A stretch of DNA of 19,056 nucleotides, taken from IMG/VR virus record IMGVR_UViG_2695420589_000003, one strand, 5' to 3'. The notes under the pieces were generated by a model. It did no database searches and was not told the DNA's origin. It saw only the letters and a program-made list of their open reading frames with translations. The stretch is from a virus (taxonomy: Duplodnaviria; Heunggongvirae; Uroviricota; Caudoviricetes). A program made the translations under genes and the position numbers. Below, one piece after another: positions 2,851 through 19,056 of this stretch (position 1 is the stretch's first letter; each line of letters begins with the position of its first letter).

Positions 2851-3285
2851 NNNNNNNNNNNNNNNNNNNNNNNNNNNNNNNNNNNNNNNNNNNNNNNNNN
2901 NNNNNNNNNNNNNNNNNNNNNNNNNNNNNNNNNNNNNNNNNNNNNNNNNNNNNNNNNNNNNNNNNNNNNNNNNNNNNNNNNNNNNNNNNNNNNNNNNNNN
3001 NNNNNNNNNNNNNNNNNNNNNNNNNNNNNNNNNNNNNNNNNNNNNNNNNNNNNNNNNNNNNNNNNNNNNNNNNNNNNNNNNNNNNNNNNNNNNNNNNNNN
3101 NNNNNNNNNNNNNNNNNNNNNNNNNNNNNNNNNNNNNNNNNNNNNNNNNNNNNNNNNNNNNNNNNNNNNNNNNNNNNNNNNNNNNNNNNNNNNNNNNNNN
3201 NNNNNNNNNNNNNNNNNNNNNNNNNNNNNNNNNNNNNNNNNNNNNNNNNNNNNNNNNNNNNNNNNNNNNNNNNNNNNNNNNNNNN

Positions 3286-3465
3286 CAGCTCTCCGGCGTA
3301 ATCCATGACAAACATCACTATCTGATAGCGGTAAACAAACGATGGGGTTTCTCCGGTCGTTTCAATGTTGCCGCTCTCCACGAAAATGGTGAATTTTTCC
3401 GGGTTGGCATGACACCACCGGCATGAACGGGTCATGGCTTCACGCAGGGAATCAGTTTTCAGCAT
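3286..3465 (-). CDS. R: Tail completion protein gpR, N-terminal 60 codons visible; 3' end masked
   Basis: ATG at 3465; MLKTDSLREAMTRS... resembles recalled P2 gpR N-terminus; follows the lysis genes as in P2. Confidence 0.65.
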
Positions 3466-3742
3466 GGTTGTTGTCCTCGTTGTTCAGTCGTTGCAGCCTG
3501 CGCTGTTCCAGTAATTCAATGGCCCGCTTATCGGCGTTACAGGTTTCCAGTGCGTCCATGAGGCTGTCGCTCCATATCCCGATGTTTCCCCATGATGGCG
3601 TCACCGGAAACGGCGGGGGAAGTACGGGGGCGGTCAGCCCTTCCGGGATGAAACGGAACGACGGCGGCGGCGCGGACGCGTTCTGCGTGCTGGTGCAACC
3701 GCTCAGTAAAGCGAGCGTCAGGAACAGCGCGGGCACATGCAT
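3452..3742 (-). CDS. lysC: Outer-membrane spanin (o-spanin, LysC/Rz1-like lipoprotein)
   Basis: Track ORF 3452..3772; lipobox LLSGC after a hydrophobic stretch and a Pro-rich mature region (PPPSFRFIPEGLTAPVLPPPFP); starts inside lysB in another frame and runs past its stop. Start is either GTG 3772 or ATG 3742. Confidence 0.7.
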   Translation of the reverse strand: MHVPALFLTLALLSGCTSTQNASAPPPSFRFIPEGLTAPVLPPPFPVTPSWGNIGIWSDSLMDALETCNADKRAIELLEQRRLQRLNNEDNNHAEN

Positions 3743-4010
3743 CTGTCGTGATATCGTTGCGTAGCTGTTCACGTCGGATTTCCCCTTCCTGTTGTCGGTT
3801 CTGGCGCGCTGTCATGACGTCACGCAGTACACCGGATGCGGTGCTGATGATGGTGCCGGCCTCTTTCAGGGTCCGGCTGTAATCGTCCAGTTGCGCCTGT
3901 GTATAACGGTTGTGTCCGTCTTCCTGCCCCAGTCTGAATGTCTGCCAGAGTGTTATGGTCAGCAGCGTGAGGACGGTCAGTGCCATCATCAGGATGTAAC
4001 GCACTTTCAT
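3537..4010 (-). CDS. lysB: Inner-membrane spanin (i-spanin, LysB/Rz-like)
   Basis: 157-aa ORF with one N-terminal TM segment (ILMMALTVLTLLTITLW) and a charged periplasmic part; ATG 4010 overlaps the endolysin stop as ATGA. Confidence 0.7.
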   Translation of the reverse strand: MKVRYILMMALTVLTLLTITLWQTFRLGQEDGHNRYTQAQLDDYSRTLKEAGTIISTASGVLRDVMTARQNRQQEGEIRREQLRNDITTDACARAVPDARFTERLHQHAERVRAAAVVPFHPGRADRPRTSPAVSGDAIMGKHRDMERQPHGRTGNL

Positions 4011-4544
4011 GACTGGCCTCCGGTGTCACGTAAGCACCATGCACGAAAATCAGTACGACGGTTAACCAGTCCCTGTGAGCGTTCGCCGCCGCTGTTCACG
4101 AAGTCAGTCAGTCTGTTGCACATGTCAGGCCAGTTGTGCGCCTGTGCATGTTTCCAGATAGTGGTGCGGTGGTAGTTACGGTTCTTATCCCTGAACCACA
4201 TAAGATTTCTGCATCCAAGATTAAAGGCGGCATCTGTCATTGCCTCAAACGCGGACTGTGGCATGGCGTTGCCGCTGAAGTTCTGATTTATGCAGTTTTC
4301 TGCATGTTGCATATCATTAACCCAGCGCCCGGCGACTTCCGTTTCGGTGTACAGACGATTTTCCACATGCCCGGTCGAGCCGCACCCCACGGTCATTACC
4401 CCGGCAATATCCCGGTAAGGCGTTGCGCGACAGTCCTCCCATGTGGCAATGCGGATTTGCGCTTCCGGGCTGGTCCGGAGTTTGTGAGGGGCAATGGAGA
4501 ACCCCAGCGCCACAATGGCGGCTACGGCGTAACGTTTAACGGGC
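4007..4544 (-). CDS. K: SAR-type endolysin (GH24 phage lysozyme, P1 Lyz / phage 21 R-like); start hidden in mask 4545-4562
   Basis: Visible sequence has a weakly hydrophobic Ala/Gly-rich N-terminal segment (YAVAAIVALGFSIA), an E-x8-D-x5-T catalytic arrangement (WEDCRATPYRDIAGVMT) and blocks ENCINQNFSGNAMPQSAFEAMTDAAFNLGC and FVNSGGERSQGLVNRR that match recalled P1 Lyz. Confidence 0.85.
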
Positions 4545-4562
4545 NNNNNNNNNNNNNNNNNN

Positions 4563-4855
4563 GCTTTATCATGTGTATCGTTATCCCGCAGAATGTTCAG
4601 AGCCTGACGCTCACTGTCGTGAAGTGGCCGTGCGTCTGACTGCGCCAGGATACTGGCGATGAGTTCATTGCGACGCTGCATGGCGGTTTCCATCAGGCGG
4701 CGATGTCGCCAGGCATGTAATGCAGACAGAGAACCGAGTAACAACCCGGCAAGGGCGATTTTTTCACTGATGGTCATCACGCCTATTGTGGTGGCTGTGA
4801 CTGATGCCCAGAAGGTGATCCAGTCACTCACCCGCTGAAAAAAACCTGTTACCAT
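4563..4855 (-). CDS. Y: Holin with two predicted TM segments; stop hidden in mask
   Basis: ATG at 4855 sits 2 nt after the X stop; two hydrophobic segments (WITFWASVTATTIGVMTI; IALAGLLLGSLSALHAW) then a charged tail; directly precedes the endolysin. Confidence 0.65.
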
Positions 4856-5046
4856 AGCTGTATCATCTCTCGTTGTTTTTTCTTCTCCGGCTCCGGCATT
4901 TCCACCTCCTGTCCGGCTTCCAGAAATACCTGTCGGCAGAGTCCGGGGTTGGCATCCAGCACCTTTTCGGTGACGCCCTGCGTCGTGCCGTAGTACCGGA
5001 AACAGAGCGAATCCACGGTGTCGCCTTCCAGTGTCTTCACTTTCAT
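4849..5046 (-). CDS. X: Tail protein gpX
   Basis: 65-aa ORF from internal ATG 5046 (MKVKTLEGDTVDSLCFRYYG...LDANPGL), resembling recalled P2 gpX (67 aa); ATG overlaps the L stop as TGATG. Confidence 0.8.
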   Translation of the reverse strand: MKVKTLEGDTVDSLCFRYYGTTQGVTEKVLDANPGLCRQVFLEAGQEVEMPEPEKKKQREMIQLW

Positions 5047-5312
5047 CAGCACAACTCCGCAAAGATTCGCGGGCGGCACAGAATGTCAGAGATGGCCCAG
5101 CTCACATCGCGCCACAAATCCGATGTCTGTATATCCAGTGCGTCCGCCCGGCGGTCGCCCTTGTCCGTTGTGTCCGCATCGCGGTAACGCTCCAGAATCA
5201 GGGCGCGTGTGGCGGTATAAACAGCATTGCGCCAGTGCCAGAGATTGACGCTTTCTCCGTTAATTACAGGTGCCGGAACATCGGCCAGCGTCTGATGGCC
5301 AGCCGCCTGCTG
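5046..5312 (-). CDS. L: Head completion protein gpL, C-terminal part; 5' part masked
   Basis: Open minus-strand frame ending at stop 5046-5048, located between M and X as in P2. No motif verified. Confidence 0.55.
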   Translation of the reverse strand, partial: QQAAGHQTLADVPAPVINGESVNLWHWRNAVYTATRALILERYRDADTTDKGDRRADALDIQTSDLWRDVSWAISDILCRPRIFAELC

Positions 5313-5811
5313 NNNNNNNNNNNNNNNNNNNNNNNNNNNNNNNNNNNNNNNNNNNNNNNNNNNNNNNNNNNNNNNNNNNNNNNNNNNNNNNNNNNNNNNN
5401 NNNNNNNNNNNNNNNNNNNNNNNNNNNNNNNNNNNNNNNNNNNNNNNNNNNNNNNNNNNNNNNNNNNNNNNNNNNNNNNNNNNNNNNNNNNNNNNNNNNN
5501 NNNNNNNNNNNNNNNNNNNNNNNNNNNNNNNNNNNNNNNNNNNNNNNNNNNNNNNNNNNNNNNNNNNNNNNNNNNNNNNNNNNNNNNNNNNNNNNNNNNN
5601 NNNNNNNNNNNNNNNNNNNNNNNNNNNNNNNNNNNNNNNNNNNNNNNNNNNNNNNNNNNNNNNNNNNNNNNNNNNNNNNNNNNNNNNNNNNNNNNNNNNN
5701 NNNNNNNNNNNNNNNNNNNNNNNNNNNNNNNNNNNNNNNNNNNNNNNNNNNNNNNNNNNNNNNNNNNNNNNNNNNNNGCGTCTTCTGGTGCGGCTGCGGA
5801 ATCGGCTTTTT

Positions 5812-6504
5812 TCAGGGCGCGGGAAAGGGNNNNNNNNNNNNNNNNNNNNNNNNNNNNGTTGCAATCTCGCGTTTCACACCTGCGTTCTGGTTCAGATGCA
5901 TCGCTTCGCGCAGCAGCTTCAGTGATGAGGCCATGCTGTCCGCATCGCTCAGGCCACGGCGGGCAAAGGCGCACGCCTTGCATAATTTGGCGCGCACTTC
6001 GTCCGGCATATCCTGGTTGGCGACAATTTCCCAAAGTGTGTCCAGTGGTTCGATAAAGACGGACAAATCCGCGTCGGCATCCGTCCCGGCCTGCGTCAGT
6101 ACCGGATTGCAGATTTCTTCGGTCAGCACTGTGGCAGCAGTACGGCCAAAGTTATCCGGCATGATGAGGTTGTGACGGACCGCATACGCACCAATACGCA
6201 GCGCAAGCGGAAGATCGCCGCAGTCAATCGCCCACACCATCAGCGTGGCAATCACTTCGTCCTGTTGCCCGCCGTCAGCCTCCAGCGTTCCCTCAATCCA
6301 GCCGGAAAAGTCCGGCAACAACGCTTTTTTGATGTCGGCTTTCGCGCTTCTGGCCTGTACGCCCTTAAGCCGGGCCTGTGCCAGACGCAGACGATACAGC
6401 ACCTCTTCATGCGCGGTACGCGCGGCGTGGTCCACACCTTCATTCGCCCGGCCTGCGCGCTGTGCCATCACGTTCTGCCAGTGTTGCTGTGCAGGAGTAA
6501 TCAT
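5812..6504 (-). CDS. M: Terminase small (endonuclease) subunit gpM; 3' end uncertain because it crosses mask 5830-5857
   Basis: ATG 6504 with GGAGAG RBS; the block MPDEVRAKL and overall profile resemble recalled P2 gpM; synteny N-M-L. Confidence 0.8.
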   Translation of the reverse strand: MITPAQQHWQNVMAQRAGRANEGVDHAARTAHEEVLYRLRLAQARLKGVQARSAKADIKKALLPDFSGWIEGTLEADGGQQDEVIATLMVWAIDCGDLPLALRIGAYAVRHNLIMPDNFGRTAATVLTEEICNPVLTQAGTDADADLSVFIEPLDTLWEIVANQDMPDEVRAKLCKACAFARRGLSDADSMASSLKLLREAMHLNQNAGVKREIAXXXXXXXXXXPFPAP

Positions 6505-8462: not shown

Positions 8463-8858
8463 AGTTTTTGCCCCTCTGACTGGTTCTTCAGTCATGATGG
8501 CAAAGCGTAACAGGCTGATACAAAGGGCTTTTGTTGTAAGAAAACGGCCAGAACAGGGGGNNNNNNNNNNNNNNNNNNNNNNNNNNNNNNNNNNNNNNNN
8601 NNNNNNNNNNNNNNNNNNNNNNNNNNNNNNNNNNNNNNNNNNNNNNNNNNNNNNNNNNNNNNNNNNNNNNNNNNNNNNNNNNNNNNNNNNNNNNNNNNNN
8701 NNNNNNNNNNNNNNNNNNNNNNNNNNNNNNNNNNNNNNNNNNNNNNNNNNNNNNNNNNNNNNNNNNNNNNNNNNNNNNNNNNNNNNNNNNNNNNNNNNNN
8801 NNNNNNNNNNNNNNNNNNNNNNNNNNNNNNNNNNNNNNNNNNNNNNNNNNNNNNNNNN

Positions 8859-11936: not shown

Positions 11937-12122
11937 CTACCACTCGATCGGCACGTAGTCATTAAGTTCCGGAGACCAATTGCACTTTTCACATCTGTGT
12001 TTTCCATTCTGGCAGATACATAAACGATAACGGCCACAATGCGGGCACCCATTTTCACCATTATCATAATCACCGAGCGACCATTCCTGCATAAGCAGCT
12101 CTTCTTCATCATCATTTAGCAT
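11937..12122 (-). CDS. Small Cys-rich (zinc-ribbon-like) protein with an acidic N-terminus; island gene 5
   Basis: 61-aa ORF with ATG 12122, AGGGGGA RBS and a Cys cluster (C-x2-C-x5-C-x-C-x6-C-x2-C); last gene of the minus-strand island. Confidence 0.55.
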   Translation of the reverse strand: MLNDDEEELLMQEWSLGDYDNGENGCPHCGRYRLCICQNGKHRCEKCNWSPELNDYVPIEW

Positions 12123-12136
12123 TAATCCCCCTTGAG

Positions 12137-12376
12137 CTATTTACTCTTCTCGGCCCTCAAAATCATACGAGAACCATCATCCAGCTCCCAATTAATTTCA
12201 CCGCCTTCTGCCATGACTAGATGCCAAACGAGTTGAGCGGCCTCGTTGGTTACATCGCGACCGCGATCATTTCCTACGCGGCGTTTTGTTCCGTCTCCTA
12301 AGTCACGCATTTTTGCCAATACGATGGTTTTTGATAGCGGTGAAAAACCAAGCTGTAGTCGTGCTGAATTACTCAC
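12137..12376 (-). CDS. Hypothetical protein (79 aa from GTG, or 57 aa from the internal ATG); island gene 4
   Basis: ORF whose GTG start overlaps the stop of the upstream 174-aa ORF (GTGA); no recognisable motif. Confidence 0.4.
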   Translation of the reverse strand: MSNSARLQLGFSPLSKTIVLAKMRDLGDGTKRRVGNDRGRDVTNEAAQLVWHLVMAEGGEINWELDDGSRMILRAEKSK

Positions 12377-12897
12377 TGGCTGCCCCCTTTGTACTGTGTT
12401 AACTCTTCCTGCTCCTGCATCATGCGATTGACCTGAACGCGTGTGCGTCGAACGGCAAAATTAAATTGAAACATGAGCCGGAACATTTCTGATGCTTCCG
12501 TGTGAGCATCACGGATAGGTGACAGGCGGTACAGTTCTGCCTCCGTAGCTTGTTGAATCAATGACAGATCAAATTGAAGTGCGGGTCTGGTACATTTTGC
12601 ACATCTGGCAGCAAGCTCCGGTATTAGTCTCTTAACGAAGGTGTTTTGCACCGCTTTGTTGATTTGTGTCTGCATCCAAATCGCAAATTTCAGCGAACGC
12701 ATAAGTTTGATAGCCTCGGGCAGCGGCAGATAGATCATGCTGGTAGATTTGGGTGGTTGGTGAACCATCTTCACGGATACGCGATTTCGCAGCGTTCGGA
12801 AAATCGTGTTCCCAACAACAGCTTCTACGGATACAGGACAGGGAGCCAGACCAGCCCGCAGTGCTTCTTTCATTAGCATGTATTCGTATTTTTTCAT
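12373..12897 (-). CDS. Hypothetical basic protein (174 aa); island gene 3
   Basis: ATG 12897 with GAGGA RBS 6 nt upstream; no recognisable domain. Confidence 0.55.
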   Translation of the reverse strand: MKKYEYMLMKEALRAGLAPCPVSVEAVVGNTIFRTLRNRVSVKMVHQPPKSTSMIYLPLPEAIKLMRSLKFAIWMQTQINKAVQNTFVKRLIPELAARCAKCTRPALQFDLSLIQQATEAELYRLSPIRDAHTEASEMFRLMFQFNFAVRRTRVQVNRMMQEQEELTQYKGGSQ

Positions 12898-12957
12898 CGT
12901 GTTTTCCTCGTGCGGGGCGACAGTGCACCCCGATAAAATTAAAAGCCGTCAAATTCG

Positions 12958-13121
12958 TCATTCAGGAAATAATGCCCGGATATTCCCTGCTATCTGACTG
13001 GTTATCTGTGCGGTTGGTACTGGCTGTGGCACGGGGCGTTCTGTCCTGGTTTGTGTCACCGATAACGCCTCATCGTCAGCCCATGCAGCCAGTCGGTAAG
13101 CCTCTGCTGGATTCATTTTCA
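12958..13121 (-). CDS. C-terminal 53 codons of an ORF starting in mask 13122-13387; candidate ParR-like adaptor by position only
   Basis: Open minus-strand frame ending at stop 12958, immediately downstream of the ParM-like gene, which is where parR sits in parMRC loci. No motif verified. Confidence 0.3.
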
Positions 13122-13387
13122 NNNNNNNNNNNNNNNNNNNNNNNNNNNNNNNNNNNNNNNNNNNNNNNNNNNNNNNNNNNNNNNNNNNNNNNNNNNNNNN
13201 NNNNNNNNNNNNNNNNNNNNNNNNNNNNNNNNNNNNNNNNNNNNNNNNNNNNNNNNNNNNNNNNNNNNNNNNNNNNNNNNNNNNNNNNNNNNNNNNNNNN
13301 NNNNNNNNNNNNNNNNNNNNNNNNNNNNNNNNNNNNNNNNNNNNNNNNNNNNNNNNNNNNNNNNNNNNNNNNNNNNNNNNNNNNNNN

Positions 13388-14299
13388 CACCCCGTCCGCG
13401 ATGAAAGTCGCATTAACTCCGCAGGCTTCGCGGATAGCGGGTGCCACAATCTCCGCCCCTCCACCGACAACCATCACCCGCCCGTAACCCGAAAAACCCG
13501 CCAGCGCGCGGATCACGCGTTGTTTCAGTGTTTCTTCCTTTTCACGAATAACCGCCATCAGGCTGGCGTAATGCGCGTCATTGTGGATGTGCTGGCGCAG
13601 CCAGGCTTCATCATGGCGATGTTCGATAATGGTATTGGCGATGTGGTGACTGGTGCGCATACCGTTAGTGGCCATCACCGACAGTACGGCATCGGCCATC
13701 AGAGAAACGCCTACGTGTGGATCGCAAAACACCTGGCTGATACCTGCCAGTTGCCCCTGAACCTTTGCCACATCCAGCGTGGTTCCGCCCAAATCCACAA
13801 TCAGCAGGGATTCAAACGGACTCATGTCAGCCAGTGCCTTAAAGCCAGCCGGAATGGATTCAGGCATAACCCGCACGTTACGGATAGTGAATGCTTCGCC
13901 GTTCTGGTACTCCACCGGGCGCATAACGTTCGCTTTTTTGCGGTTGATGTTGGCCATGTCCGGCTGTGCGTTTGTGTCGAAATACTCGCTCAGTGGCAGG
14001 GTGACAACCACATCCACCTCCTGTGGCGTGATGCCTGATTTGACCAGCGCGTGATGAATGGCAATGACATTTACATCGCTGTACTGGTATTGCGTGTCGG
14101 TTGTCTGGACAAAGCGATCGCTGACCGGATCAAAACCATAGCGCACGCCATCAAGCATGTAGTTCGCGGGCTGCATGCCACCGAACGGCGCAGACCATTC
14201 CGACTTGAAGCTGTTCGGGCTGATGGCGTTGCGGCGTTCGCCGTTCTCAGTCCATGCCAGCTTGATGTTGGTGGAGCCGTCGTCGATACAAATTTTCAT
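13388..14299 (-). CDS. ParM/StbA-like actin-fold ATPase (304 codons visible; C-terminus masked)
   Basis: N-terminus MKICIDDGSTNIKLAW closely matches recalled R1 ParM; all three ASKHA nucleotide-binding motifs present: DDGSTNIK (14261-14284), LIVDLGGTTLD (about 13778-13795), VMVVGGGAE (13451-13477); AAGGA RBS before ATG 14299. Confidence 0.85.
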
Positions 14300-16785: not shown

Positions 16786-17391
16786 NNNNNNNNNNNNNNN
16801 NNNNNNNNNNNNNNNNNNNNNNNNNNNNNNNNNNNNNNNNNNNNNNNNNNNNNNNNNNNNNNNNNNNNNNNNNNNNNNNNNNNNNNNNNNNNNNNNNNNN
16901 NNNNNNNNNNNNNNNNNNNNNNNNNNNNNNNNNNNNNNNNNNNNNNNNNNNNNNNNNNNNNNNNNNNNNNNNNNNNNNNNNNNNNNNNNNNNNNNNNNNN
17001 NNNNNNNNNNNNNNNNNNNNNNNNNNNNNNNNNNNNNNNNNNNNNNNNNNNNNNNNNNNNNNNNNNNNNNNNNNNNNNNNNNNNNNNNNNNNNNNNNNNN
17101 NNNNNNNNNNNNNNNNNNNNNNNNNNNNNNNNNNNNNNNNNNNNNNNNNNNNNNNNNNNNNNNNNNNNNNNNNNNNNNNNNNNNNNNNNNNNNNNNNNNN
17201 NNNNNNNNNNNNNNNNNNNNNNNNNNNNNNNNNNNNNNNNNNNNNNNNNNNNNNNNNNNNNNNNNNNNNNNNNNNNNNNNNNNNNNNNNNNNNNNNNNNN
17301 NNNNNNNNNNNNCGGGGATCCCCGTTCCTTCACGCCCCACTGCGTGGCGCGGTTGTTGCCAGTCCCTGATGTACTCTGCCGTCATAGTGAT

Positions 17392-17757: not shown

Positions 17758-17898
17758 TGCGGCAATCCTCTTGTTACAGATGTGCGAAGGCCTCCCGCCG
17801 CAAGGTGCAGGAAAGGCCCGGAACAGGAATTAATGGAGTTTGTTTTGCTGCCGGATGAGCTGCTGAAGCCCGACGTGGTTTCCGGCAGTTGGAGGTGC

Positions 17899-18144
17899 TC
17901 ATGCTCTGATTTCCCTCAGTAGCTGGTTGAACATCTGGGTTAGTGGGTTGCTACACCCAAACGGCATCAGGTTTACCTGATAAGAAAAGCGACCGCCTGT
18001 TTTGCGCTCTTTTCTTGTGACTAAACCGCTGCGCCAGAGACGGCGTAGCTCCGCATTAATGGTTGTGGTTGGTGTATTCAGTGCTGCGGCGATTTCTCCA
18101 CTGCTACAACCCGGATTGGCAGCGATGTAGTCCAGAATGGTCAT
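17899..18144 (-). CDS. Small winged-helix DNA-binding protein, PapI/FaeA-like (81 aa)
   Basis: ILDYIAANPGCSSGEIAAALNTPTTTINAELRRLWRSGLV follows the PapI pattern as recalled; ATG overlaps the upstream ORF stop as ATGA. Confidence 0.6.
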   Translation of the reverse strand: MTILDYIAANPGCSSGEIAAALNTPTTTINAELRRLWRSGLVTRKERKTGGRFSYQVNLMPFGCSNPLTQMFNQLLREIRA

Positions 18145-18344
18145 CTGCGTGACTCCTGTACCTGTCTGATAAGATTCACCTGCACCACGTTGGTGGCGCA
18201 GAAGTAAGTGCCGTCAGTGAGATAGATATGATGTGCATCCTTTTCTGAACGGTGTTTGTCGATTGTGGTAATCAGGCGTTCGTCAACTTCGTATTCACGT
18301 CCTCTGGAGGTGAAACGAACGACAGGAAAATGCTTAATTGCCAT
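18141..18344 (-). CDS. Hypothetical early protein (67 aa from ATG 18344)
   Basis: Strong AAGGAGG 4 nt upstream of ATG 18344; the track's longer GTG start at 18395 lacks an RBS. Confidence 0.5.
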   Translation of the reverse strand: MAIKHFPVVRFTSRGREYEVDERLITTIDKHRSEKDAHHIYLTDGTYFCATNVVQVNLIRQVQESRR

Positions 18345-18430
18345 TACGCCTCCTTGGCGTGTGCGAATACCTCCGCGAATGCGGATTGTTTTCACATTTT
18401 CTTATTTAACCTAGGGTCTTATTTGCGCGG

Positions 18431-18544
18431 TTATTCTTCAGTGAAAAAGCGTTCAATCTTTTTTACTGAATTAATAATTCGCATAATCCCAATGGCGCAG
18501 ACCACCGAAATAATCAGAACAAGCCATGAAATAAATATACTCAT
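18431..18544 (-). CDS. Unlisted 37-aa small membrane peptide (MSIFISWLVLIISVVCAIGIMRIINSVKKIERFFTEE)
   Basis: Translated by hand from the minus strand; ATG 18544 overlaps the stop of the upstream 80-aa ORF (ATGA), GGGAAA 7 nt upstream; one hydrophobic helix plus a charged tail. Below the size cutoff of the ORF track. Confidence 0.4.
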   Translation of the reverse strand: MSIFISWLVLIISVVCAIGIMRIINSVKKIERFFTEE

Positions 18545-18783
18545 GCGATATTTCCCAGCTTATACGGTTCAATATGTTCCCCGCATTCTGCGGCACAGAT
18601 CAGCTCGGAAAGTTCGTTAAGTGCATCCAGATCATCAGCGTAAAAAGCCACGTCATACAGACTTCGGATTGCTCTGGTCAATGAGTCACGGGCCGCACGT
18701 TCAGCATGAGCGCCTGATGCACTTAAGCGAAAATAAAAACGCTCAAGTGCTTTGTTAATGAGAGTTTTATATTCTTTGCCCAT
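18541..18783 (-). CDS. Hypothetical early protein (80 aa)
   Basis: ATG 18783 (second codon of track ORF 18541..18786); acidic, helical-looking; no motif recognised. Confidence 0.45.
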   Translation of the reverse strand: MGKEYKTLINKALERFYFRLSASGAHAERAARDSLTRAIRSLYDVAFYADDLDALNELSELICAAECGEHIEPYKLGNIA

Positions 18784-18794
18784 CACAACGCCCT

Positions 18795-18995
18795 TTAATC
18801 TGCTTTCTGTATTTCAGCTTCTGAATCCATACAAATAATTTCGATATAGGGTTCATCGCCATTAACCTGGCGTGCCTTTTCATCTTCGCTGATGATTTCT
18901 CGTACGGTCTGGTACGGAAGTTCCACAAGCAGTCGCGTGCCGTTCAGATAAACGTAAGTGGCTTCGTCGGCTCCGTTTTTACCCGCCGGAGTCAC
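18795..18995 (-). CDS. Possible small ORF (66 aa, GTG start)
   Basis: Track ORF only; GTG start without a convincing RBS. Confidence 0.25.
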   Translation of the reverse strand: MTPAGKNGADEATYVYLNGTRLLVELPYQTVREIISEDEKARQVNGDEPYIEIICMDSEAEIQKAD

Positions 18996-19056
18996 TCCGT
19001 CAATAGCGGATGCACGTAATAACAGTTAGACTGGCCCCCTGAATCTCCAGACAACC

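Follow-up and report, generated by a model that had tools for sequence, protein, structure and literature searches.

The window, by which we mean the whole 19,056-nucleotide stretch of virus record IMGVR_UViG_2695420589_000003 analysed here, carries four overlapping lysis genes at 4855..3452 on the minus strand, between the tail gene X and the tail-completion gene R. We put at roughly 80% the probability that they are the lysis genes of a prophage of the P2 family (Peduoviridae), akin to P88, and work as outlined below. The first-pass annotation had placed a lysis cassette at 3452-4855, and the profile matches agree, bringing together a holin-like gene, a GH24 endolysin, lysB and lysC. This is an ordinary lysis module, of a type already known in Peduoviridae, and the main value of the analysis lies in a correction: holin and endolysin are most likely not fused, and continuity of reading frames across the N masks of the window is not to be trusted. 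The features on which the argument draws are these:

4849..5046, minus strand: tail protein X, 65 aa, upstream neighbour of the holin gene (PF05489, E 7e-21)
4536..4855, minus strand: holin-like gene (phrog_1350, holin, E 5.9e-21), with the stop codon TAA at 4538-4536
4545..4562, no strand: 18-N mask, for which all near-identical relatives have a single T; neither a start nor a stop codon is covered
4007..4572, minus strand: GH24 (T4-lysozyme-type) muramidase, read as a SAR endolysin (PF00959, E 4.5e-23), 182 aa in relatives
3537..4010, minus strand: lysB, i-spanin, 157 aa (phrog_214, Rz-like spanin, E 1.3e-22; hydropathy; alignment to P88)
3452..3742, minus strand: lysC, o-spanin lipoprotein, 96 aa (PF23793, LysC, E 4.2e-12; phrog_3001, E 9.2e-23)

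In the working that we propose, the cassette would be transcribed with the head and tail genes in one long late operon, and the overlaps between its genes (ATGGTAA, a 20-nt overlap and ATGA) would couple their translation. The 182-aa GH24 muramidase would be exported by Sec and tethered, inactive, to the inner membrane through its SAR segment (Y9-P23), which is weakly hydrophobic and unusually short. The 100-aa two-TMD holin, predicted to lie N-in/C-in with a basic C-terminal tail, would accumulate and, at a critical level, form holes and collapse the proton-motive force. Depolarisation would then free the SAR segment from the membrane to become part of the globular domain, the arrangement of active P1 Lyz, after which murein would be degraded; the structure model supports this final state, and the trigger is proposed by homology. 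Control would be non-covalent as in R21, since Tyr and Asp replace the SAR and catalytic Cys residues, and LysB, anchored in the inner membrane, together with LysC, an outer-membrane lipoprotein, would finally fuse both membranes.

Gene boundaries, the masked junction and the spanins

At its upstream end the cassette abuts gene X, the stop codon of which is overlapped by the holin start (ATGGTAA). The product of this gene is 47% identical to P2 X, and its homologue in FDAARGOS_943 is annotated as tail protein X. A scan for promoters and terminators inside the cassette found none, as expected within a long operon, and an NCBIfam search with all four cassette proteins returned no family at its cut-off.

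The junction between holin and endolysin had been described at first pass as hiding both the holin stop and the endolysin start in the mask, with the two genes in the same frame, so that a fusion was left as a caveat. Neither statement survives: the mask leaves both the endolysin ATG (4572-4570) and the holin TAA (4538-4536) in view, and in the near-identical loci the genes lie in different frames and overlap by 20 nt. In these 12 loci (L002, L004-L009 and L013-L017) the junction reads ...CATGATAAAGC-T-GCCCGTTAAACG..., with flanks identical to those of the window, and because a single T is found there, the 18 N very probably stand for one base. The other masks behave likewise, as all nine are 17 to 187 nt longer than what corresponds to them in the closest genome; since mask lengths in the window are thus unfaithful, frame continuity across the mask is uninformative. 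That continuity, the two frames running on through 18 N in the window as given, is what would favour a single fused polypeptide with the mask covering a genuine in-frame 18 nt. We consider this extremely unlikely and reject it on the junction sequence of the 12 near-identical loci and the audit of mask lengths, to which may be added the visible start and stop codons and the presence of separate holin and endolysin genes in 89 related loci. Judged from these sequences, the holin and the endolysin are very probably separate genes, and their apparent fusion would be an artefact of the mask.

Downstream of the endolysin, LysB has an N-terminal TM helix by hydropathy (residues 5-22) and is chimeric: codons 1 to ~73 belong to a swapped-in module discussed below, and the remainder is P88-like, with a C-terminal extension of 22 aa relative to P88 LysB. 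LysC, which aligns over its full length to a P88 reading frame, carries the lipobox LLSG-C16 with Thr at +2. The spanin genes had been called embedded/overlapping, and it is the second term that applies, as the lysC start lies within lysB, in a different frame, and its stop 85 nt past that of lysB, an overlapped rather than embedded architecture; the lysC stop in turn overlaps the start of the tail-completion gene R (3465). In the closest genome, PGAP leaves lysB unannotated and flags lysC as partial. Decay of the two genes, which these flags might suggest, was rejected because both frames are intact relative to P88, with lysB reading 22 codons further.

The endolysin and its control

The endolysin matches PF00959 at 82.4 bits, against a cut-off of 22.3, and is related to both P1 Lyz (1XJT; phmmer E 4e-31) and R21 (3HDE; E 3.5e-5), two SAR endolysins established by experiment. 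The similarity to P1 Lyz noted at first pass is thereby confirmed, as is the GH24 catalytic triad, since E40-8aa-D49-5aa-T55 aligns with E42/C51/T57 of P1 Lyz and E35/D44/T50 of R21. An AF2 model computed from a 98% identical sequence (P0012) has a pLDDT of 88.7, with ~95 for the SAR helix (11-21). Foldseek aligns this model to active P1 Lyz (1XJT) over 178 columns that include the SAR helix, with a TM score of 0.87 and an rmsd of 2.2, compared with 0.57 and 7.9 for inactive P1 Lyz (1XJU). The predicted fold thus includes the N-terminal helix, just as the structure of active P1 Lyz does.

The N-terminus reads MIKLPVKR-YAVAAIVALGFSIAP-HK, in which the basic residues K3, K7 and R8 are followed by 15 uncharged residues, 47% of them Gly, Ala, Ser or Thr, in line with the weakly hydrophobic Ala/Gly-rich segment initially described. 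The SAR segment spans residues 9-23 (Y9-P23) and contains no Cys, and its uncharged core of 15 residues compares with ~20 in R21 and P1 Lyz. Such a length is also typical of the h-region of a signal peptide, and a possible signal-peptidase site lies between A16-L-G18 and F19, so the segment might instead be a cleavable Sec signal peptide that leaves the enzyme soluble in the periplasm. There is a precedent in T4 RI, which was first taken for a SAR protein, mistakenly, its N-terminal segment being a cleavable signal (PMC8385771). Several observations nonetheless make cleavage very unlikely here. Twenty-six relatives combine a Cys at the n/h boundary of their N-terminal segment with a catalytic Cys, as P1 Lyz does, and such a pair has a rationale only where the segment is retained and enters the periplasm. 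Furthermore, AF2 confidently places the helix in the fold, matching active full-length P1 Lyz, and an active muramidase secreted constitutively would kill the host before assembly is complete. The only AXA-like site, S-I-A, is directly followed by Pro23, which is invariant in 43 homologues, and Pro at +1 blocks cleavage by signal peptidase I.

The SAR reading of the first-pass annotation is thus upheld by the homology to P1 Lyz, by the AF2 fold with its SAR helix and by the comparative data. That annotation had named a cleavable signal peptide or a fully soluble N-terminus as what would overturn it; with the start now established, neither is indicated: the N-terminus is hydrophobic and Pro23 is invariant. 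We regard the protein as a well-supported SAR endolysin, on sequence, structure-model and comparative evidence, with tethering and release as predicted properties.

How such an enzyme would be held inactive depends on its cysteines, which lie at positions 42 and 58, Cys42 being the equivalent of P1 Cys44. The regulatory cysteines of the P1 type are missing: Tyr9 occupies the site of the SAR Cys (P1 C13) and Asp49 that of the catalytic Cys (P1 C51), and P1-type thiol-disulfide isomerisation is therefore impossible in this enzyme. Of the features that define the P1 Lyz subclass, a SAR Cys and a disulfide-caged catalytic Cys, neither is present, and Cys42 alone is retained. Kuty et al. are said to have described in 2010 a further type, Lyz103, with disulfide caging of the catalytic Glu, a Cys on either side of this Glu (C-E-x-C) and a SAR Cys; the window endolysin has W39-E40-D41-C42 at this place and no SAR Cys, and so lies outside that subclass as well. 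Its Cys-less SAR domain and the Asp in its triad are those of the R21 subclass, and to judge by these residues the control of the endolysin must be non-covalent, as in R21. Our account of the P1 Lyz, R21 and Lyz103 mechanisms draws on general background, PDB titles and the summaries in PMC3556154 and PMC9239132.

The 43 aligned endolysins include a subgroup of 16, found in E. coli, Citrobacter and Edwardsiella, to which the window sequence belongs. Within this clade of P1-Lyz-like SAR endolysins, the subgroup has changed at three positions together while keeping Cys42: Tyr replaces the SAR Cys, Asp the catalytic Cys, and Cys the Ile/Met/Leu at position 58. In the close family these three changes amount to one event, and the combination of Cys42, Cys58 and a Cys-less SAR domain recurs in only three distant representatives (P0079, P0084 and P0141). 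The Cα distance between Cys42 and Cys58, extrapolated from the DSSP hairpin register on the assumption of regular strands, would be ~8 Å, a value that speaks neither for nor against a disulfide. One tentative and rather unlikely scenario is that Cys58 replaced the SAR Cys as the partner of Cys42, which would have turned a redox switch into a fixed structural disulfide and left control to topology, with the holin as an independent pinholin. If true, the regulatory types of P1 and R21 would be naturally bridged by the Cys42-Cys58 enzyme, and pinholins would have a second, independent lineage in this holin family, which is unrelated to S21. Some close homologues carry the P1-type regulatory cysteines and others lack them, a natural pair in which the evolution of SAR endolysin control could be studied.

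The holin and its class

The holin is 100 aa long in all near-identical relatives, the window coordinates including the 18-N mask that very probably stands for 1 nt. That it has two TM segments, as originally proposed, is borne out by hydropathy, with hydrophobic helices at ~12-27 and ~33-49 separated by a short turn and followed by a basic cytoplasmic tail of ~50 aa, and by the helices of the AF2 model (2-26, 29-74 and 80-98). Against PF16080 (HP1 holin) it scores 18.8 bits, under the 28.8-bit cut-off, and such sub-cut-off matches are found in all nine holin family members, at best with E 1.2e-4. The motif G37xxxG41 in TMD2 is invariant. TMD1 consists to 53% of G, A, S and T, and its hydropathy sum is 3.0, versus 6.4 for TMD1 of S21; by this crude sum, which does not discriminate SAR-like from ordinary TMDs, it is at least as hydrophobic as the TMDs of the P88 holin. 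An hhalign comparison found no homology to S21 (probability 0.8%), the S21 sequence having been checked against phage 21, and the gene has no dual-start motif, with one Met ahead of TMD1.

The genomic context is uniform. A homologue of the window endolysin lies directly downstream of the holin family in 80 of 80 IMG/VR loci, in all nine species genomes and in each of three annotated phages, and among 89 loci the family is never found beside a soluble endolysin. NCBI records list its members as 'phage tail protein' or 'hypothetical protein'; it would be helpful to correct the annotation of this uncharacterised holin family.

To which class the protein belongs is less easily said, as holins and pinholins are indistinguishable by sequence and SAR endolysins work with canonical holins too (PMC9025707; bioRxiv 10.1101/2025.11.12.688109). 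A canonical large-hole holin that releases any endolysin, comparable to those of the LydA/P1 Lyz and gp62/N4 gp61 pairs, is for this reason a serious contender, to which we give somewhat less than even odds; it would agree with the lack of S21 homology and of a dual start, with a cytoplasmic tail of ~50 aa against ~13 aa in S21 and with a TMD1 of undistinctive hydropathy. However, a large-hole holin has no cause to avoid soluble endolysins, as this family does in all 89 loci. The holin was also exchanged in the P88 backbone together with the SAR endolysin, and the two-TMD class II architecture and the GxxxG of TMD2 resemble S21. An accessory factor, either an antiholin or a releasin that aids SAR exit as Mu gp25 does, deserves scant credence: size and a long charged cytoplasmic domain loosely recall Mu gp25, a protein of 99 aa with a 73-aa cytoplasmic domain (PMC9239132), but the window protein has two TMDs rather than one, is the sole candidate membrane protein of the cassette, occupies the usual holin position upstream of the endolysin and matches a PHROG holin family (phrog_1350). 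A releasin (DUF2730) identity was rejected, as there is no match at E up to 1 and the protein has two TMDs. We take the 100-aa holin to be probably, though not demonstrably, a pinholin.

Probable module exchange and comparison with known systems

The region has the backbone of Escherichia phage P88 (Xuanwuvirus): over L, X, lysB (3' half), lysC and R, its DNA shares 86-94% identity with that phage. This homology ends at window position 4852 and resumes at 3791, and the segment between forms one further feature:

3792..4852, minus strand: swapped-in module of holin, endolysin and the 5' half of lysB, without nucleotide similarity to P88-type phages

One of 5,426 complete E. coli genomes contains the module. 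P88-type phages have in its stead a 107-aa holin with three hydrophobic segments and an M15 peptidase or GH108 endolysin without SAR domain. The best explanation for this pattern is that recombination brought in the holin and the endolysin along with the 5' half of lysB, displacing the P88-type holin and the M15/GH108 endolysin. As the joint lies inside lysB, the part of LysB that overlaps lysC stayed with its LysC partner. The cassette would thus illustrate cleanly how P2-family prophages exchange lysis modules, holin and endolysin having moved jointly.

Phage P2 itself also has its lysis genes between X and R in the late operon, with lysB and lysC overlapped. Its Y and K, to which the first-pass annotation had pointed for comparison, show no similarity to the window holin and endolysin; P2 has lysA, for which the window has no counterpart, and its LysB and LysC have no similarity to those of the window that BLASTP can detect.

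Phage 21 offers a parallel in organization. Here, too, a two-TMD class II holin adjoins a GH24 SAR endolysin with a Cys-less SAR domain and an E-8-D-5-T triad, and a two-component spanin follows the endolysin. The window holin, however, is not homologous to S21, lacks a dual-start antiholin and has a C-terminal tail far longer than that of S21, and R21 is a far more distant relative of the window endolysin than P1 Lyz is (E 3.5e-5 versus 4e-31). Furthermore, lambdoid phages such as 21 have embedded spanin genes, whereas those of the window are overlapped. P1 Lyz is the closest solved relative of the endolysin, at 36% identity and a full-length TM score of 0.87, and differs by C13, which corresponds to Tyr9, and C51, which corresponds to Asp49; the window enzyme has the additional Cys58 and a shorter SAR core.

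Among P2-like phages, Enterobacter phiT5282H and Klebsiella ST16-OXA48phi5.4 and 3LV2017 share the order X, holin, GH24 SAR endolysin, lysB and lysC. All three have a holin of the window's family (47-50% identical in phiT5282H and ST16-OXA48phi5.4) and endolysins 55-68% identical to that of the window, but these endolysins bear the full P1-type set of cysteines (SAR Cys, C42 and catalytic Cys) that the window's lacks, and their DNA is only 64-70% identical to the window. For Escherichia phage Midge, likewise P2-like, the annotation names a holin of class II, an endolysin of the signal-arrest-release type, an i-spanin and an o-spanin (PMC12697156). The likeness is one of annotation. Midge is related to Erwinia phage EtG rather than to P88, and it is this annotation by which the type of cassette seen in the window was already recognised in Peduoviridae.

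Gene order and prophage setting

The cassette is an ordinary SAR-endolysin lysis system, made up of several genes and carried by a P2-family prophage. The main interpretation of the first-pass annotation is largely right in the light of family searches, matches to P1 Lyz and R21, and a structure model, and the ORFs were found where that annotation had placed them:

Upstream neighbour of the holin, minus strand: tail gene X (PF05489)
4536..4855, minus strand: holin (phrog_1350, E 5.9e-21)
4007..4572, minus strand: endolysin (PF00959, E 4.5e-23)
4010..3537, minus strand: LysB (phrog_214, E 1.3e-22)
3537-3602: LysB extension, by comparison with P88
3742..3452, minus strand: LysC (PF23793, E 4.2e-12)

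Megablast placed the region among P88-like (Xuanwuvirus, Peduoviridae) prophages of E. coli, and the whole 2-kb stretch was matched by one complete genome, E. coli FDAARGOS_943, whose annotated order is head completion L, tail X, a 100-aa 'hypothetical protein', a 182-aa 'lysozyme', an unannotated gap, a 'partial' LysC, and tail R and S. All genes from L to S are on the window's minus strand. Neither promoter-like nor terminator-like sites were found in window 3286-5312, which fits a site within a long late operon, as in P2. SAR-type cassettes have previously been annotated in Peduoviridae, in phage Midge (PMC12697156), and P2 Y, K and lysA, the first two named for comparison at first pass, are unrelated to the cassette genes.

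The overlapped spanin architecture is like that of P2: lysC starts inside lysB in another frame and ends 85 nt beyond it, so that of the 'embedded/overlapping' arrangement first described, the overlap stands and the embedding does not. LysB runs 22 codons past the P88 stop position, a longer form seen in all contigs examined. In the closest RefSeq genome, PGAP gives no lysB and calls lysC partial; both frames are intact (window 3537-3602; 4789-5331 in L002, one of 12 near-identical loci).

Similarity to P88 covers the left flank up to window 4852, which is exactly where the holin starts, and picks up again at 3791, within lysB and a short way upstream of where lysC begins. This indicates that holin, endolysin and the first ~73 lysB codons were exchanged as one block. 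Judged from these sequence comparisons, window 3792-4852 (minus strand) is a recombined block in a P88-like backbone; at this site P88-type phages instead have a 107-aa holin, hydrophobic in three segments, together with an endolysin of M15 or GH108 type. One joint falls inside lysB and gives a chimeric i-spanin, in which the part encoded by the lysC-overlapping stretch keeps the original sequence. The block is present in 1 of 5,426 complete E. coli genomes, and the nearest phage DNA, in Klebsiella P2-like phages, is 64-70% identical.

Elsewhere in the window, the structural genes are 99.7-100% identical to FDAARGOS_943, whereas part of the early region (17894-19027) is only ~90% identical with many indels, making the prophage mosaic relative to that genome. 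Window 12398-12956 is unaligned, so FDAARGOS_943 has different sequence there. Into this unaligned part falls a 174-aa ORF (12373-12897, minus strand) that matched nothing in Pfam, PHROG or PADLOC and that could be accessory cargo of a variable kind; it sits in a lower-GC stretch (0.47-0.48) that comes after the portal gene, a 61-aa Cys-rich zinc-ribbon-like ORF (11937-12122, minus strand; phrog_24897, E 2.6e-46, function unknown) and a DUF7446 gene, and it precedes a ParM-like gene. At 13076-14299 (minus strand) and its neighbours, the annotation of the closest genome gives this ParM-like segregation gene and a small partition/stability gene, two genes that an integrated P2-like element does not usually have and that may point to an option of plasmid-like maintenance.

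The masked junction and the holin

In the window as given, the holin and endolysin frames run on through 18 N, and the first-pass annotation had regarded the holin stop and endolysin start as hidden there and a fusion as conceivable. Both claims are very likely wrong. The endolysin ATG (window 4572-4570) and the holin TAA (4538-4536) are readable outside the mask, and in FDAARGOS_943 a single T stands between AAAGC and GCCCG, as it does in six further independent contigs with the same holin and five IMG/VR contigs with identical proteins. In these relatives the holin ends ...DKAAR-TAA, the endolysin starts ATG ATA AAG CTG CCC GTT AAA (MIKLPVK...), and the two genes overlap by 20 nt in different frames. 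We also aligned the entire window to FDAARGOS_943 to audit its masks:

Nine masks (N-runs): 2013-2051, 2209-2779, 2851-3285, 4545-4562, 5313-5777, 5830-5857, 8561-8858, 13122-13387, 16786-17312

All nine are longer than the sequence they replace (by 26, 85, 101, 17, 33, ~29, 31, 66 and 187 nt); at one of them 28 N stand in place of ~0 nt, and at the junction 18 N stand in place of 1 nt. Mask length is thus not frame-preserving, frames and distances across masks are unreliable, and the apparent continuity is very probably an artefact. Given this and the single T, it is barely credible that holin and endolysin form one polypeptide in the window genome.

The 100-aa holin has two hydrophobic helices by hydropathy (AF2 helices 2-26 and 29-74, pLDDT 70), a very short turn between them and a basic tail of ~50 residues. 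Its family is small, with 11 clusters among 5.8 billion proteins; all nine aligned members match the HP1 holin model PF16080, each below the cut-off, and share invariant R8, T22, G25, M27, T28, A34, G37, G41, R52, N63 and L65. NCBI, UniRef and a single phage record list family members (proteins P0001, P0006, P0008, P0010 and P0011; locus L012, 1983-2267) as 'phage tail protein' or 'hypothetical protein', a naming that is probably an annotation error spread from the neighbouring tail gene X.

According to the literature, sequence does not separate holins from pinholins; what does is a complementation test that sets soluble against SAR endolysins (PMC9025707; bioRxiv 10.1101/2025.11.12.688109). 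The 100-aa protein does not resemble S21, the pinholin of phage 21 (hhalign probability 0.8%, with the S21 sequence verified against phage 21 itself), there is no dual start in the gene, and TMD1 is not clearly weaker in hydropathy than ordinary holin TMDs. As a genomic proxy for pinholin dependence, we asked whether the family ever adjoins another endolysin kind. A homologue of the window's SAR endolysin lies directly downstream in 80 of 80 IMG/VR loci, in all nine species-representative genomes (Edwardsiella, Enterobacter, two Erwinia, Pantoea, Kosakonia, Citrobacter and two Klebsiella) and in three annotated phages. This exclusive pairing favours pinholin-like dependence, short of proof, and we give the provisional pinholin label roughly even odds or a little better; that the protein is a canonical holin is possible, if on the doubtful side.

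The endolysin and its cysteines

The GH24 catalytic triad and the P1 Lyz resemblance proposed at first pass both hold: P1 Lyz (1XJT, E 4e-31) and R21 (3HDE, E 3.5e-5), the two SAR endolysins that have been studied structurally, both match the endolysin (PF00959), whose E40, D49 and T55 align on their known triad. With the start now known, the N-terminus reads MIKLPVKR, YAVAAIVALGFSIAP, HKLR, in which three basic residues precede an uncharged stretch with 47% Gly/Ala/Ser/Thr. This stretch has 15 residues, against ~20 in R21 and P1 Lyz, a length that would also suit a signal peptide. Pro at +1, however, blocks signal peptidase I cleavage, and Pro23, directly after the sole AXA-like site (S-I-A), is invariant in 43 homologues. 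Furthermore, in 26 of these 43 a Cys opening the hydrophobic segment co-occurs with a Cys at the catalytic Asp position and Cys42, the C13/C44/C51 pattern of P1 Lyz, an enzyme whose catalytic Cys is freed only once the SAR thiol enters the periplasm. PMC3556154 is consistent with this release mechanism. An AF2 model built on P0012, a protein 98% identical to that of the window, has pLDDT 88.7 and pTM 0.85 (~95 for helix 11-21); at full length it fits active P1 Lyz well (178 columns, TM 0.87, rmsd 2.2 Å) and the inactive form poorly (TM 0.57, rmsd 7.9 Å), so that the prediction places the N-terminal helix within the soluble fold. Taken together, Pro23, the Cys covariation and the model make a cleaved signal peptide quite unlikely.

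The window endolysin itself has Tyr9 for its relatives' SAR Cys and Asp49 for their catalytic Cys, which makes P1-type disulfide isomerisation unavailable to it; it retains Cys42 and gains Cys58. Across residues 9, 42, 49 and 58 of the homologue alignment, the close family splits cleanly into 26 sequences with the P1 pattern (SAR Cys, C42, catalytic Cys) and 16 with the window pattern (Tyr9, C42, Asp49, Cys58), the latter a single clade and hence one evolutionary event. Cys42, Asp49 and Cys58 with a Cys-less SAR segment recur in three distant sequences (P0079, P0084 and P0141) among 1.84 billion representatives, and Cys58 never occurs together with a SAR Cys, either there or in the close family. 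These small numbers hint at a possible role for Cys58 in pairing with Cys42 in place of the SAR Cys.

The window endolysin also has no Lyz103-type C-E-x-C motif. R21 likewise lacks a SAR cysteine and is under non-covalent control, and on residue identities the window endolysin would group, by exclusion, with the R21 regulatory type. The endolysin's departure from the cysteine pattern of close P1-type homologues is all that is mildly unusual about the cassette.
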